A stretch of 24,161 nt of DNA from assembly GCA_019911985.1 (NCBI GenBank), contig JAIOJO010000067.1, positions 1 to 24,161 of the forward strand. Reading direction: 5' to 3'. Below the pieces are notes generated by a model that saw nothing but the letters and a program-made list of their open reading frames with translations, was not told the DNA's origin and made no database searches. The translations under genes and the position numbers were made by a program. Below, in pieces: positions 7,699 through 15,279 of this stretch. The stretch is from Sulfuricellaceae bacterium (lineage in GTDB: Bacteria > Pseudomonadota > Gammaproteobacteria > Burkholderiales > UBA9220). Each line of letters opens with the position of its first letter. Positions within the stretch are counted from its first letter, which is position 1.

Positions 7699-7774
7699 GC
7701 CGGCATAGCTCAGTTGGTAGAGCAGCTGATTTGTAATCAGAAGGTCGAGGGTTCGATTCCTTTTGCCGGCACCA
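7699..7774 (+). tRNA. tRNA-Thr(TGT)
   Basis: 76-nt cloverleaf: acceptor GCCGGCA/TGCCGGC, D arm, anticodon loop TT-TGT-AA, TTCGATT T-loop, encoded CCA. Confidence 0.97.
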
Positions 7775-7873: not shown

Positions 7874-7946
7874 ATACCCCCGAAACATGGGGGTATATTC
7901 TGGGGTACATCACATGCCAATGTGATTTACAGAAGGATATACCCCC
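7874..7946. repeat. Left cluster of GGGGGTAT motifs (probable integrase arm sites)
   Basis: ATACCCCC 7874-7881, GGGGGTAT 7889-7896, TGGGGTAC 7901-7908, ATACCCCC 7939-7946; matched by a pair at the right end. Confidence 0.65.
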
Positions 7947-7949
7947 ACC

Positions 7950-9188
7950 ATGGCACTTAAAGACCTGGAAATACGCAACGCCAAGCCACTCGATAAGCCC
8001 TATAAGCTCGCAGACAGTGGGGGTATGTACCTTGAAATCAGGCCCAACGGCTCGAAGTATTGGCGCCTGAAATACCGCTTCGGAGGAAAAGAGAAGCTGC
8101 TGGCGCTGGGGGTATATTCAGCACCAGGGCGCCCAGCTTCCGAAGCCGTCACATTGACCGAGGCGCGCAAGCGGATGGCCGAGGCCAAGAAACAGATTCG
8201 GGACGGCATAGACCCCTCCCACCAGCGCAAGGTGGAGAAGATCACCAAGACACAGAACACAGCAAACACCTTTGAAGGCGTGGCCGATGAATGGCTGGAA
8301 AAGTTCGGCGTCAAGAAAGCAGCGTCAACCATGGAGAAAACCCGCTTTATCCTCCGGCGTGATGTGTTCCCGTGGCTGGGGGCGCTACCCATTGCGGAAA
8401 TCAAGCCTTCCGACCTACTGGCAGTCCTGCAAAGGATTGAAAGCCGTGGCGCCCTGGAGACTGCCCACCGTGCGAAGCAATACGCTGGGCAGATATTCCG
8501 CTACGCCGTGGGCACCAAGCGAGCCGAGCGGGATATAACGCAAGACCTCAAGGGCTCACTGCCCGCCCCCAACGTGAAGCACCGAGCAGCCATTACCGAC
8601 CCCGTAAAGTTCGGTGAACTGATCCGCGCCATTGATGGCTTCAATGGAACATTCACGGTCAAGTGTGCCTTGAAGTTGGCACCTCTGATCTTTGTGCGCC
8701 CCGGCGAGCTGCGACAGACGGAATGGTCCTGGGTGGATATGGACGCCGCGACGATCTGCTACCCAGCTTCCGTGATGAAAATGCGAGAGGATCACATAGT
8801 CCCGCTATCCAACCAGGCGCTTGAAATCCTGCGAGAGATTCAGCCGCTTACCGGGCGCGGCAAGTATGTATTCCCCAGCATCCGAACCGGAGAACAACCC
8901 ATGAGCGAGGCGTCGATTAACGCGGCACTTCGGCGCCTTGGGTACGACAAGACGGAAATGACCGGCCACGGATTCAGGGCAGCCGCCAGGACGATCATGG
9001 ATGAGGTGCTGGGCTTCCGTGTTGACCTGATAGAGCATCAGCTCGCCCATGCCGTCAAAGACCCCAACGGACGGGCCTACAACCGCACGGCGCACCTTCC
9101 CCAACGGAGGGAAATGATGCAAGGCTGGGCAGATTATATTGACGGGCTGGCGAGCGGCGCGAAGGTGTTGCCGTTCAAGGCTGCGTAG
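7950..9188 (+). CDS. int: P4-family tyrosine integrase with N-terminal arm-binding domain
   Basis: KPYKLADSGGMYLEI..NGSKYWRLKYRFGGKEKLLALG N-domain; catalytic R (VRPGE), HGFR, QLAH and AYNR all intact. Confidence 0.97.
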   Translation: MALKDLEIRNAKPLDKPYKLADSGGMYLEIRPNGSKYWRLKYRFGGKEKLLALGVYSAPGRPASEAVTLTEARKRMAEAKKQIRDGIDPSHQRKVEKITKTQNTANTFEGVADEWLEKFGVKKAASTMEKTRFILRRDVFPWLGALPIAEIKPSDLLAVLQRIESRGALETAHRAKQYAGQIFRYAVGTKRAERDITQDLKGSLPAPNVKHRAAITDPVKFGELIRAIDGFNGTFTVKCALKLAPLIFVRPGELRQTEWSWVDMDAATICYPASVMKMREDHIVPLSNQALEILREIQPLTGRGKYVFPSIRTGEQPMSEASINAALRRLGYDKTEMTGHGFRAAARTIMDEVLGFRVDLIEHQLAHAVKDPNGRAYNRTAHLPQRREMMQGWADYIDGLASGAKVLPFKAA

Positions 9189-9287
9189 GAGCATCACCGC
9201 CGCCTGACGGTTTCAGGTAAAAGCGGCGGCAAGGGTGCGTGAACACCCGAACCGCCTGACCATAACGCAACTGCAAGGAGTTACATC

Positions 9288-9371
9288 ATGGCTACCGCCG
9301 ATTCTACATCACGCAACATCGCCGCATCGCAAAGCACGGACCGCGAAGTCAAGAAAGGAGGTGCGGAATGA
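9288..9371 (+). CDS. Putative 27-aa leader peptide (MATADSTSRNIAASQSTDREVKKGGAE)
   Basis: AAGGAG RBS before ATG 9288; TGA overlaps the ATG of the next ORF (ATGA). Too short for the supplied ORF track. Confidence 0.5.
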   Translation: MATADSTSRNIAASQSTDREVKKGGAE

Positions 9372-9715
9372 GCGGCGAAAATCCTTATTTTTCACACGGC
9401 ATAGAATTTTCTGGCCTTTGTCACAACCTGCAAAACCAGCCGCCAGAATGGGCTGGTGGCTTATTTACAAAAGAATATGACCCTCTTCGGCTTATTGCGA
9501 TTGAACGGCAAGCTGACAATATCGAACAATCGGCGCTTTCGGGTGCTAAGGCTGTTGGAGAACTTCTGGCTGTTGCCATTCGAACCGGCGAGCTGGACAA
9601 GAACACGATTGAAAGTGCCGGCTGGCTGATTAAGTTTCTTGCTGATCTTGCACAAGAAACCGGAGTTATTTCTTCAAGCGCCAGACATACTGTTGAACAT
9701 GGCGCATTAATCTGA
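9368..9715 (+). CDS. Hypothetical element protein (115 aa)
   Basis: AAGGAGG RBS upstream; co-oriented with the element; helical C-terminal half; no family recognised. Confidence 0.7.
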   Translation: MSGENPYFSHGIEFSGLCHNLQNQPPEWAGGLFTKEYDPLRLIAIERQADNIEQSALSGAKAVGELLAVAIRTGELDKNTIESAGWLIKFLADLAQETGVISSSARHTVEHGALI

Positions 9716-9722
9716 CCGTTTT

Positions 9723-9787
9723 GCCGCGCCTAGCCCGAGGCTGATCCCCGAGGGCGAAAACCGGGCACCTTCACCCGGCGGCGCGGC
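9723..9787 (+). ncRNA. Candidate cloverleaf regulatory RNA (c4/CI-like)
   Basis: 8-bp closing stem GCCGCGCC/GGCGCGGC enclosing two hairpins, in an intergenic gap. Function inferred only. Confidence 0.4.
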
Positions 9788-9822
9788 TCCTGATTGAAGG
9801 CTGCACTTTGAAGGGGTGTGAA

Positions 9823-10296
9823 ATGCCGAGACTAGATATTTCACCTGAGATCGAATCAGAACAACTTGATTATTTTCGAACAACGTTCGAGATGATGACG
9901 GGAAATAGCCGCGTAAGTGCATTATTTGGCGCAATCAGGTTTTGTGGAAATCAGGAAATACCCATGCCGCAATGGGTTGTAAATGCTTTTTACTCTGCAA
10001 CCAACGAGTGGCTTGGTATGCGTGCCTGTAGTCTTGATGAATCCTTTGGAGCGAAACCACGCACCATAAAAAGAATGGCTCAAATGAAGCTGAGAAGCTT
10101 GGCTTTTCATAAAGTGCAGATTGCTGCTAGAGCAGCAAAACAACATGGCAATTCAATTAACATTTCCTTTTTCGATGAACTGAGCGAAAAGATTGGGCTG
10201 GGCAAAACGGCACTTCAAGAACTGTATTACGGCAAAAGAAACAGAAAACCCCTAACCCGCGAAAAATCAAAAAAACGCGGGATTACTAAAAAATAA
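9823..10296 (+). CDS. Hypothetical AT-rich protein (157 aa) with possible C-terminal HTH
   Basis: AAGGGG RBS before ATG 9823; FFDELSEKIGLGKTALQELYY resembles an HTH; basic tail. Confidence 0.7.
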   Translation: MPRLDISPEIESEQLDYFRTTFEMMTGNSRVSALFGAIRFCGNQEIPMPQWVVNAFYSATNEWLGMRACSLDESFGAKPRTIKRMAQMKLRSLAFHKVQIAARAAKQHGNSINISFFDELSEKIGLGKTALQELYYGKRNRKPLTREKSKKRGITKK

Positions 10297-10363: not shown

Positions 10364-10606
10364 ATGGCAGCCCAACTTGCAGAACTCAACACCCAGCGCC
10401 TCACCATCCTTCGCCGTCGAGAAGTTGAACGGCGCACCGGACTTTCCAGAACGTCCCTGTATGAACGCATTGCAGCCGGAACCTTTCCGCGCCCTGTAAA
10501 TCTTGGCGGAGGGCAGAGTGTTGGCTGGTATGAACACGAAGTAGAAACGTGGATTTCCAGCCTCCCCCGTGCCCGTGCGGGCGAACGCGCCGAATCCGCC
10601 AAGTAA
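10364..10606 (+). CDS. alpA: AlpA-family regulator / recombination directionality factor
   Basis: ILRRREVERRTGLSRTSLYERIAAGTFPRPVNLG..SVGWYEHEVETWI is the AlpA pattern. Confidence 0.95.
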   Translation: MAAQLAELNTQRLTILRRREVERRTGLSRTSLYERIAAGTFPRPVNLGGGQSVGWYEHEVETWISSLPRARAGERAESAK

Positions 10607-10616
10607 GGCGGGCGCA

Positions 10617-10820
10617 ATGAAAAATCACTCCAAAACCAACTACAGAAACGTTCCTGGCGGCAGCGGACTAAACCCTAACACCCGAGGGCCAATGATTCCC
10701 GTTGCGCTTGAGGACTTGCTAACCAGCGGCTCCCGTACCCAACGCCGTTGGGCATCAAAAGAGCTGCGCAAGTTGTCCCGCGAGAAGGTGAAAGCGAGTA
10801 GCGAAGGGAGCGCGGCATGA
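10617..10820 (+). CDS. Small basic hypothetical protein (67 aa)
   Basis: Fills the alpA-primase gap; stop overlaps the primase ATG (ATGA). Confidence 0.55.
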   Translation: MKNHSKTNYRNVPGGSGLNPNTRGPMIPVALEDLLTSGSRTQRRWASKELRKLSREKVKASSEGSAA

Positions 10821-11647
10821 TTAGCTTCGAGCGTAAGTTTCTTGATGCTCTCCGATCTGCCGGACTGGAGCCAGTGAAGGCCGACATTGACGCTGATGGC
10901 GTATTGCACCGTTACCGAGTAACGGGCGACAAGGCAGGCAGCATGAACGGCTGGTACGTGCTCCACGCTTCCCCTGTTCCTGCTGGCGCTTTCGGCTCCT
11001 GGAAAACAGGCGAAACTCACTCCTGGCGTGATGATGTAACCAGGACTGCCACCCCGGCAGAGCGTGCCGAGTTGCAGCGACAAATGCAGGCCATGAAAGC
11101 GGCGCGTGCCGAGGAGGAAAGGCGCGTGCGGGATGCTGCCAGAGCCAAGGCCGCCAAGCTGTGGCTGATGGCCAAGCCTGCACCGGGCGATCATCCCTAC
11201 CTGGCGCGAAAGCGGGTCAAGGCATGGGGTCTGCGGCAGTTGAACAACATGCTGTTGATCCCGGCTCGCGATGCCGCCGGGCAGCTCCATACCCTGCAAT
11301 TCATCGGCGCTGATGGCAACAAGCGGTTCCTGACAGGCGGGCGCATTCAGGGCTGCTATTACGCAATTGGACGGGTTCGCGGCGCGGTGCTGGTGGCAGA
11401 GGGCTATGCCACGGCAGCAAGCATATTTGAGGCGTCTGGCCATGCCGTGGCGGTGGCCTTCAACGCCGGGAACCTGGAGCCAGTGGCGCGTGCAATACGT
11501 TCAAAATTCCCAAAATTGCACATTGTCATTTGCGCCGATGATGACACGGCGACACCCGGCAACCCCGGACTGACCAAAGCGACCGAGGCGGCACGCGCTG
11601 TGCATGGCTGGGTGGCAAAGCCTGATTTCAGCGGGGTGGCGGCATGA
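10817..11647 (+). CDS. Toprim-domain DNA primase (TraC/P4-alpha-like, no zinc finger seen)
   Basis: LQFIGADGNKRFL.GG, VAEGYATA, VAFNAGNL and ICADDD Toprim motifs. Confidence 0.9.
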   Translation: MISFERKFLDALRSAGLEPVKADIDADGVLHRYRVTGDKAGSMNGWYVLHASPVPAGAFGSWKTGETHSWRDDVTRTATPAERAELQRQMQAMKAARAEEERRVRDAARAKAAKLWLMAKPAPGDHPYLARKRVKAWGLRQLNNMLLIPARDAAGQLHTLQFIGADGNKRFLTGGRIQGCYYAIGRVRGAVLVAEGYATAASIFEASGHAVAVAFNAGNLEPVARAIRSKFPKLHIVICADDDTATPGNPGLTKATEAARAVHGWVAKPDFSGVAA

Positions 11648-13212
11648 GCGCCGTCATGACTGATTTTAATGACCTGGCGCTTGCTGCTGGCCCTGATGTG
11701 CTGCTTCAGCAGTTGGGCAAGGCGAAGCCAGCAACGCCACTCAATAACCCGGCTGAATGGCCTGATCCGCTGCTCCCCGGCAAGATCAACGTTCCCGACA
11801 TTCCAACGTCCATTCTCCCTAGCTGGGCTGGCGCGATGGCGCAGGCGGTGGCGGATAGTACCCAAACCAGCCCCACGCTGGCGGTGATGCTGACCCTTTC
11901 CGTTCTTGCCACTGTGCTGCAACGCCGCTTCGAGGTGGCCCCATATGGCGCTGATGATGACTACAGCGAGCCGTTGGCGGTATGGACCTTAACCGGGCTG
12001 GGCAGCGGGAACCGCAAGACGGCGGTAATCAATTCCCTCGCCGCCCCGCTGGTGTATTGGGAGAAGTTGGAGCGCGACCGTATGCGGTCCGAGATTGCAC
12101 GGGTAACAGCGGCGCGGGCGGTGGGAAAGAAGCGTATCGAGAAACTGCTCAAGGACGCCAGCAACGCGGACAACGACGATTCCAGAGCACGGATTCAGGC
12201 GCAGATTCAGCAGGAGGAGGAAGCCATGCCAGCCGAGGTTAGAGCGCCACGGCTTTACACCGGGGACTGCACGGCGGAGCGTTTGCAAGGGCTGCTGGTA
12301 GAACAGGGCGAACGCATGGCGGTTTTGTCTGATGAGTCTGGCATATTCCTGATTATGGCCGGCATCTACTCGGGCGGCATTGCCAACCTGGATGTATTCC
12401 TACAGGGACATGCCGGGACGCCCATGCGCGTGGATCGTGCCGAGCGATCCGCCCATATCGACAAGCCCGCCTTGTCCTTCGGCCTGGCGCTGCAACCCGG
12501 CGTGATGGCTGACGTGGCCAGCTCACGGCGCTTTCGGGATAGCGGCCTGCTGGCGCGATTCCTGTTCGCCATGCCTGAATCAAACGTGGGCAAGCGTGAC
12601 GTGCGGAGGCGCGTGACGATCCCCGAGCATGTCCGGGCGGCTTACGCGCGCGGTCTGTTCGCCCTGCTGGAACAGCGCCCTGCAGTACCAGGAAACCCAA
12701 GGATCATTCCATTTACTGAACAGGCGCTTGATTGCTGGATAGATTTCGCTGAGGAGATCGAGACCCAGCAGGGCGAGGGCGGAAAGCTGGAAGGGATTGC
12801 CGATTGGTCATCAAAGTTACCCGGTGCGGCGGCGCGGGTTTCGGCGCTGCTGGAGTTGGCAGAAGTGGGCCTGCACGCCGAAAGCGTAAGTCACCAGTCA
12901 GTGGCGCGGGCGGTGGAGTTGGGCGGCCTGCTGATCCCACACGCTCAGGCGGCATTCGGCCTGCTGGGTGCGGACGCTACTGAGGCAGACGCCAGCGCCA
13001 TTGTGAAGTGGCTACGCGAGAACAGCAGCGGTTACTTCAAGCGCAGTACATGCCAGAAGGCGATGGAGGGGCGATTCCGTACCGTGGACAAGCTCAAGAA
13101 GGCGCTGGATAGACTGGTCCAGTGTGATGTGCTCAGAGAGGAAAAGCTACCAAACAAAGGTGCACCGCCAAGCATTTGCTATCGAGTCAATCCGAAGTGT
13201 CTGTCTACATGA
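11644..13212 (+). CDS. DUF3987/YfjI-family replication (helicase-like) protein
   Basis: Degenerate P-loop GLGSGNRKT, TAERL, VLSDE, SGLLARFLF, winged-helix-like C-terminus; coupled to the primase by ATGA. Confidence 0.85.
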   Translation: MSAVMTDFNDLALAAGPDVLLQQLGKAKPATPLNNPAEWPDPLLPGKINVPDIPTSILPSWAGAMAQAVADSTQTSPTLAVMLTLSVLATVLQRRFEVAPYGADDDYSEPLAVWTLTGLGSGNRKTAVINSLAAPLVYWEKLERDRMRSEIARVTAARAVGKKRIEKLLKDASNADNDDSRARIQAQIQQEEEAMPAEVRAPRLYTGDCTAERLQGLLVEQGERMAVLSDESGIFLIMAGIYSGGIANLDVFLQGHAGTPMRVDRAERSAHIDKPALSFGLALQPGVMADVASSRRFRDSGLLARFLFAMPESNVGKRDVRRRVTIPEHVRAAYARGLFALLEQRPAVPGNPRIIPFTEQALDCWIDFAEEIETQQGEGGKLEGIADWSSKLPGAAARVSALLELAEVGLHAESVSHQSVARAVELGGLLIPHAQAAFGLLGADATEADASAIVKWLRENSSGYFKRSTCQKAMEGRFRTVDKLKKALDRLVQCDVLREEKLPNKGAPPSICYRVNPKCLST

Positions 13213-15165: not shown

Positions 15166-15202
15166 CATTTTCCAACTAAACAAGGGGTAGCAAAATGAAA
15201 GT

Positions 15203-15222
15203 GGGGGTATATTTGGGGGTAT
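15203..15222 (+). repeat. Right pair of GGGGGTAT motifs (probable integrase arm sites)
   Basis: GGGGGTAT at 15203-15210 and 15215-15222; 12-bp period, same as the left pair. Confidence 0.65.
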
Positions 15223-15279
15223 AAATTGGGCAAAATATTTTTGCATCTAAGCCTATGGCTGTTCTCAGGCAATTATTTC

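Follow-up and report, generated by a model that had tools for sequence, protein, structure and literature searches.

An int-alpA RNA upstream of a start codon in a tRNA-Thr island: a possible translation leader acting in cis

The window considered here, a stretch of 24,161 nucleotides from a Sulfuricellaceae bacterium (GenBank assembly GCA_019911985.1, contig JAIOJO010000067.1, positions 1 to 24,161 of the forward strand), carries a small cloverleaf RNA at positions 9723-9800 (+). It is confirmed as a real folded RNA and as a further copy of the catalogued int-alpA family, of which it is an ordinary representative. We put the chances at about even that it is a cis-acting translation-initiation leader, in which the loop of its third helix, P3, would pair with one or the other of two boxes (box 1 or box 2) in the leader of the next gene, ORF 9823. 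A preliminary description of the same DNA had proposed an RNA-based immunity switch; we consider such a free-floating immunity RNA less likely than one that controls, within its own transcript, how the following gene is translated. The cis reading is based on three properties of the family, namely that the spacings are conserved, that box 1 is contiguous with the hairpin holding the Shine-Dalgarno (SD) sequence, and that the genes placed downstream are unrelated.

The RNA is located in a 7.5-kb island at a tRNA-Thr (TGT) gene (7699-7774, +; found by ARAGORN, and by Rfam with 70.9 bits), which is the left-end integration site of the island. All genes of the island are on the + strand, in the order integrase, two small ORFs, the RNA, a 157-aa ORF, alpA, primase and DUF3987 helicase. 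The integrase is a P4-type tyrosine integrase of 412 aa (7950-9188, +) with the Pfam domains Arm-DNA-bind_3, Phage_int_M and Phage_integrase. According to the ORF list, it is followed by a small ORF of 27 aa (9289-9371, +), coupled to an ORF of 115 aa (9368-9715, +), which lies in the interval between integrase and RNA, matched no family in Pfam or NCBIfam, and has a stop codon ending 7 nt upstream of P1. The first gene after the leader, ORF 9823 (157 aa, 9823-10296, +, also from the ORF list), matched no family in Pfam, PHROG or NCBIfam, and its look-alikes in a protein atlas were unnamed clusters only, from Pseudomonadota and phages. Next come alpA (10364-10606, +), encoding an 80-aa AlpA-family regulator (Pfam PF05930 Phage_AlpA, 58.3 bits, E = 6.9e-16), a Toprim primase (10817-11647, +; Pfam, and DNA primase in PHROGs) and the DUF3987 helicase (11644-13212, +; Pfam, and DNA helicase in PHROGs). 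The chromosome resumes with LysR and RuBisCO genes from 15382 onward. This layout is the int-alpA-primase type of P4-like or PICI-like satellites. A chromosomal segment of E. coli D5 has the same order, with an integrase, the motif, a hypothetical protein, an AlpA-type HTH regulator, an antirepressor and an Icd-like protein.

Some further observations concern the island at large. Repeats of the form GTGGGGGTAT(AT) are grouped at both of its ends (7888-7907, 8013-8026, 8107-8126 and 15197-15233) and look like arm-type integrase binding sites. An 83-aa ORF with no family match (10569-10820) has its start overlapped by alpA and itself overlaps the primase start at 10817. At 9224-9295 (+), a sub-threshold match to RF00043, an R1162-like plasmid antisense RNA, was found (40.4 bits against a cut-off of 55; E = 2.6e-5 for an 851-nt stretch); it corresponds to a hairpin followed by AAGGAG and the ATG at 9289, and thus leads the 27-aa ORF.

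When the whole window was compared with Rfam, two matches exceeded the threshold, the tRNA-Thr and an int-alpA RNA. The latter match (RF02996) extends over 9723-9800 on the + strand and covers positions 1-71 of the 71 in the model, with 61.8 bits compared to a gathering score of 35.8 (E = 7.8e-11). The sequence and the Rfam alignment agree on the traits of the family: P1 encloses P2 and P3 in a three-way junction, the conserved CCUAG and GAAAA junctions are present, and a 3' purine box, UGAAGG at 9795-9800, aligns to model positions 66-71. The location, between a P4-type integrase and alpA, is likewise that of the family. The int-alpA RNA is widespread in phages and phage satellites, and no function has been assigned to it. 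We take the source of the motif to be the 224-motif survey of Weinberg et al. 2017 (PMC5737381), the main text of which contains no discussion of the int-alpA RNA. Elsewhere in the literature it appears as one entry among sRNAs predicted in genomes, and int-alpA-pri is used as a gene order for satellites.

Two features set the window copy apart from the family. Its P2 is a longer variant with a loop containing GGCUGAUCC, with no other structural difference, and the two small ORFs (9289-9715) stand between integrase and RNA; at 22 of 49 genome loci, by contrast, the motif directly follows a P4-type integrase gene in the same orientation. As for the family model itself, the Rfam consensus structure, as printed, omits three elements that are described below: the pseudoknot between P3 loop and box 1, the SD hairpin, and the second box.

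All parts of the leader are on the + strand. The 5' strand of P1, GCCGCGCC (9723-9730), pairs perfectly over 8 bp with its 3' strand, GGCGCGGC (9780-9787), as in the Rfam alignment. Inside P1, the UA of the CCUAG junction (9731-9732) precedes the P2 hairpin (9733-9755), in which GCCC (9733-9736) pairs with GGGC (9752-9755). The P2-P3 junction GAAAA (9756-9760) follows; both junctions are conserved in the Rfam consensus and fall in near-invariant alignment columns. The P3 hairpin (9761-9778; CCGGG at 9761-9765 with CCCGG at 9774-9778) is supported, like P2, by the sequence, Rfam and RNAfold, and bears the loop CACCTTCA (9766-9773; in RNA, CACCUUCA), a recognition element that covaries with boxes 1 and 2. 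The cloverleaf described earlier, with its 8-bp closing stem and two hairpins, is present in the sequence, and the minimum free energy and centroid structures returned by RNAfold both correspond to exactly this fold. The free-energy z-score of a 115-nt stretch was only -0.43, so that thermodynamics alone would not pick out the cloverleaf; the strength of the evidence for the fold comes from the comparison with relatives.

Downstream of P1, a pyrimidine-rich linker, UCCUGAU (9788-9794), follows the family pattern W-Y-C-Y established by position counts on 37 relatives. It leads to box 1 (UGAAGG, 9795-9800), with which the Rfam model ends. Box 1 is the partner of the P3 loop in the pseudoknot and a candidate decoy, and its duplex with the loop has an energy of -8.0 kcal/mol. 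Then comes P4 (9803-9819), a weak hairpin by RNAfold (-4.3 kcal/mol, four G-U pairs) which contains the SD region. Box 2, UGAAGGGG (9809-9816), is also complementary to the P3 loop (-9.2 kcal/mol) and is the SD sequence of ORF 9823; the second TGAAGG copy that it includes (9809-9814) is 8 nt upstream of the ATG at 9823. When tails of 35 nt after P1 were shuffled, one 6-nt loop complement occurred in 4.5% of them, and two separate ones in 0.05%.

A few other identities were considered for the cloverleaf. A terminator was rejected: P1 has no run of T behind it, and the + strand has no terminator-like site near 9787. A tRNA-like or RNase P substrate signature was not supported, since ARAGORN finds only the tRNA-Thr and no CCA follows P1. 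A hammerhead-like core, based on the GAAA of the junction and a CUGAU in P2, was also rejected: no ribozyme family matched at E <= 10, and the CUGAU sits in the variable loop, not in the junction.

The relatives were collected from genomes and from viral contigs. Of 151 genomes sampled from the same order, 27 gave the motif with the Rfam model, and so did 13 of 151 sampled from the class; the window's own genome is counted in each figure. A single genome had up to four copies. An exact 19-nt core pattern retrieved 74 IMG/VR viral contigs, many of them 10-15 kb long, in which 1.2-1.7 kb separate the motif from one of the contig ends; blastn of phage GenBank records with a consensus-like copy of 81 nt gave no matches. 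One of the IMG/VR contigs (L059) carries tandem int-alpA leaders 364 nt apart, the loop sequences of which differ.

In an alignment of 47 relatives, 88% of the cells were paired, and double (compensatory) changes were found in all 17 stem pairs. None of 500 shuffles reached the observed values, and slid registers were paired at 33-50%. Helix by helix, P1 was 94% paired with double changes at 8 of 8 pairs, P2 was 82% paired with double changes at 4 of 4, and P3 had double changes at 5 of 5. The preliminary description had listed a lack of covariation among the outcomes that would refute its reading; the stems do covary. Both G-U and U-G pairs occur among the stem pairs of relatives, as would be expected of a fold that forms on the + strand.

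We then examined the pairing of the P3 loop with the two boxes. Column-wise counting was not suited to the tails, which the MAFFT alignment leaves out of register, and a register-free permutation test was therefore used: loops and tails were re-paired among sequences, any register being allowed for native and permuted pairs alike. Relatedness among sequences is ignored in this test. In a set of 95 non-redundant relatives, drawn from both genomes and viral contigs and with kinship left aside, the longest Watson-Crick run between P3 loop and box 1 was 5.73, compared to 4.21 for permuted pairs (z = 14.7; 0 of 3000 permutations reached the native value). For the box 2 region of the same relatives, the signal was weaker, 4.59 compared to 4.07 (z = 6.1, 0 of 3000, kinship again ignored). 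Genome loci alone gave z values of 8.2 for box 1 and 5.3 for box 2.

A stronger argument than these permutations, uncorrected as they are for relatedness, is the variety of helices by which loop and box 1 are joined. More than 50 different helix sequences were counted, among them CCUUCA/UGAAGG, CCCUUG/CAAGGG, CCCUA/UAGGG, CCUUUCA/UGAAAGG, UCACUCAA/UUGAGUGA, CUCUAUC/GAUAGAG and ACUCGUA/UACGAGU, and some of them, such as UCACUCAA/UUGAGUGA, are unlike any SD sequence. The pseudoknot between the P3 loop and box 1 is therefore very well supported. In some relatives, box 2 also tracks the loop outside the SD core (UACGGAGG, GUAGAGG and UGAAGAGG). The complementarity to box 2 is in part forced, however, because many loops resemble an anti-SD sequence and every SD is purine-rich. 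Averaged over the family, the duplex energies are balanced, with -8.4 kcal/mol for box 1 and -8.5 kcal/mol for the box 2 region. The preliminary description had drawn attention to the complement of CCTTCA, TGAAGG, at 9795 and again at 9809 over the ribosome-binding site of ORF 9823; both copies are there, and since covariation has maintained both pairings, a regulatory pairing at the ribosome-binding site is plausible. Covariation does not discriminate between pairing in cis and pairing in trans.

The distances that separate these elements from the start codon were then compared. Throughout the family, the order is the same: after the three-way junction come a pyrimidine-rich linker, of 5-14 nt in most relatives, then box 1, P4 with the SD (box 2) in its loop, and the start codon. 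In 61 of 74 relatives, box 1 and P4 are 0-3 nt apart. The P4 loop is 90% purine, and the start codon falls within -3 to +5 nt of the 3' arm of P4. At about 40 of 49 genome loci, a start codon provided with an SD is found 14-26 nt past the end of the Rfam model, and the proteins encoded there are mutually unrelated.

Two cases illustrate how the leader is joined to different genes. A groundwater metagenome contig (run X2) matches 8900-9800 with about 21 differences, including the 3' end of the integrase, the two small ORFs and the RNA, and diverges directly past box 1 (9800) into another SD hairpin and another ORF. Two loci of a single genome (L037 and L046 in G238) have leaders that are identical through box 1 and for about 22 nt beyond; the identity ends a few nucleotides short of the start codon, and the proteins encoded behind it differ, with 447 and 280 aa. 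Judging from these breakpoints, the leader behaves as a transferable unit behind which genes can be exchanged.

Sequences upstream of P1 bear on where the transcript starts. Of 101 relatives, 54 have a -10-like hexamer (at least four of six matches) located 5-9 nt upstream of P1, compared to 16 when the search interval is shifted 12 nt further upstream. This suggests that in relatives the transcript may often begin at P1. TAA stop codons occupy the same site and confound this excess: hexamers such as CATAAT, TATAAT and GATAAT often contain the stop codon of the integrase (for instance at loci L064, L070, L081 and L121). The signal is weak in the window, where no sigma-70-like promoter was found directly upstream of P1, a point that counts against the leader reading.

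We propose the following mechanism for the cis-acting leader. If the P3 loop (CCUUCA) were paired with box 1 (9795-9800), a pseudoknot would form and the SD would stay free; if it were paired with box 2 (9809-9814), the SD would be masked. The alternation of the two pairings would set the level of translation of ORF 9823. Such a two-state model is favored by the fact that both boxes of the window contain the same 6-mer. As to what might throw the switch, two candidates can be put forward. The junction nucleotides and P2 are strongly conserved, which suggests a bound partner, and a protein or small ligand binding to the conserved junction could be the trigger. Alternatively, ribosomes terminating on the upstream ORF might open P1, given that its stop codon is 7 nt before P1 in the window and that an upstream ORF stops 6-16 nt before P1 at 27 of 49 loci.

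Known regulators offer a precedent of a general kind. Pseudoknot-forming translational riboswitches and leaders mask or expose the SD, and int-alpA resembles them in having a junction with highly conserved unpaired nucleotides and a pseudoknot from a loop to the 3' tail, placed directly before SD and start codon. The difference is that in int-alpA the 3' strand of the pseudoknot (box 1) is itself off the SD, and that it is the second, similar box that overlaps the SD.

The main rival of the two-state model is a static pseudoknot. The three-way junction and the loop-box 1 pseudoknot would be stacked on the SD hairpin in a single compact structure, either keeping translation at one level whatever the context or protecting the 5' end of the mRNA, and the whole would serve as a portable module for swappable cargo. 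The best argument for it is that pairing with box 1 is universal, whereas a large viral subgroup (loop UCACUCAA, SD GGAG) has a loop with no useful complementarity to its SD. SD masking cannot, therefore, be universal among int-alpA RNAs, and perhaps only the pseudoknot with box 1 matters. The short distance between box 1 and the SD hairpin would allow coaxial stacking, the end of homology at the 3' edge of the leader and the unrelated genes behind it fit a module, and the -10-like hexamers suggest that the RNA often forms the 5' end of the transcript, subject to the TAA confounding and to the weak signal in the window noted above. Against a static structure, the complementarity to box 2 exceeds that of permuted pairs and extends to flanking bases that are not part of the SD in several relatives, and two identical 6-mer boxes, as in the window, are rare in shuffled tails. 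On balance, we find a static leader rather doubtful.

The immunity model of the preliminary description places the action in trans. The excised cloverleaf would accumulate and, through its loop, pair with both boxes on other transcripts, from the same or an incoming element, thereby shutting off ORF 9823 and the alpA-primase genes. We regard this as unlikely. The analogy invoked was with the CI RNA of P4 and the c4 RNA of P1. The target boxes of P4 CI flank the RNA, and P1 c4 stops icd translation, thereby provoking premature termination. To our knowledge, no master repressor has been described for Gram-negative satellites of the int-alpA-primase type. In line with the earlier remark that the element has no evident repressor, none of the island genes scanned was repressor-like, AlpA being the sole recognizable DNA-binding regulator, and this speaks for an immunity RNA. 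So does the fact that Rfam types RF02996 as 'Gene; sRNA'. The diversity of loop and box sequences, far greater than that of P2 and the junctions and exceeding 50 types even when the 19-nt core is identical, would also suit determinants of specificity.

The likeness to the C4 RNAs of P1 and P7 and to P4 CI goes some way. In each case, a compact RNA with a long terminal closing stem has a loop complementary to two short boxes of the same transcript, one of them at the ribosome-binding site of the gene that follows, on a mobile element with primase-helicase replication genes downstream. This part of the analogy holds, and covariation has maintained the complementarity. The rest is not supported. 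A comparison of 9150-10000 with all 4227 Rfam families at E <= 10 (cmscan) gave six matches, none of C4 type, so that the Infernal search foreseen for the c4 and CI families leads to int-alpA instead. P4 CI and P1/P7 C4 are processed, hairpin-type substrates of RNase P, recognized partly via their 3' ends (PMC5499578). As a proxy for such processing, we looked for a CCA-like 3' signature downstream of P1, and it was absent: P1 is followed by W-Y-C-Y, and only 1 of 37 relatives has A at position +4. Moreover, both int-alpA boxes are downstream of the RNA and next to each other, and the leader precedes many unrelated genes.

Other observations also argue against action in trans. A trans target would not require the conserved linker length or the contiguity of box 1 and SD hairpin. 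Co-resident copies often have the same loop/box pair (for example L002/L028, L031/L048 and L032/L044). Extra trans targets within the island were looked for and rejected, TGAAGG and the 10-mer complement of the loop being absent from the other ribosome-binding sites. The bulged match at 9231 (AAGGGTGC, 9231-9238), cited earlier as a further target, does exist, yet it is indistinguishable from chance, TGAAGG being present 15 times in the window compared to 10.2 expected, and the site lies within a different hairpin. Finally, reads from the three metatranscriptomes of the source study included none on the stretch, and of the runs searched, those that matched it were DNA runs, with no RNA run among them; this result weighs on the cis reading as well.

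Action in cis and in trans might also be combined. The P3 loop would then be a bistable toggle, cleavage of the linker would free the cloverleaf to act in trans, and the more than 50 pairings would be specificity classes, amounting to an RNA code for immunity or cross-talk among satellites. This more elaborate scheme appears distinctly unlikely.

The position of the RNA at the boundary between the integrase and alpA-primase modules, all on one strand, might instead point to a device acting on transcription. Read-through from the integrase module into the alpA and replication genes would be controlled, either by put-like antitermination or by a c4-like block of translation leading to Rho termination; phage P1 C4 helps to block ant expression in the c4-icd-ant operon (PMC8198154). 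No intrinsic terminator-like site is present near the RNA on the + strand, however, and its tight coupling to SD hairpin and start codon suggests that it acts first of all on translation, which makes control of transcription very improbable.

Lastly, the motif could be a DNA element, that is, a folded single-stranded recombination site of attC type through which cargo cassettes would be swapped beside the integrase. The integrase genes adjacent to the motif at 22 of the 49 genome loci and the breakpoints of homology at its 3' edge would both fit, and the 224-motif survey states that motifs of single-stranded DNA and of RNA are hard to distinguish (PMC5737381). The breakpoints are explained equally well by homologous recombination within a conserved sequence, and the fixed spacing to SD and start codon on one strand suits an mRNA leader rather than a recombination site, as does the pseudoknot with the purine box. 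We find a DNA element hardly credible.

The window copy adds nothing unusual to the int-alpA family. Its anatomy, shared with its relatives, consists of a loop that covaries with two boxes, an SD that a hairpin presents next to the start codon, constant distances between these parts, and unrelated genes downstream, and it defines concrete targets for mutation. Mutating these parts would separate the gating of translation in cis from action in trans.
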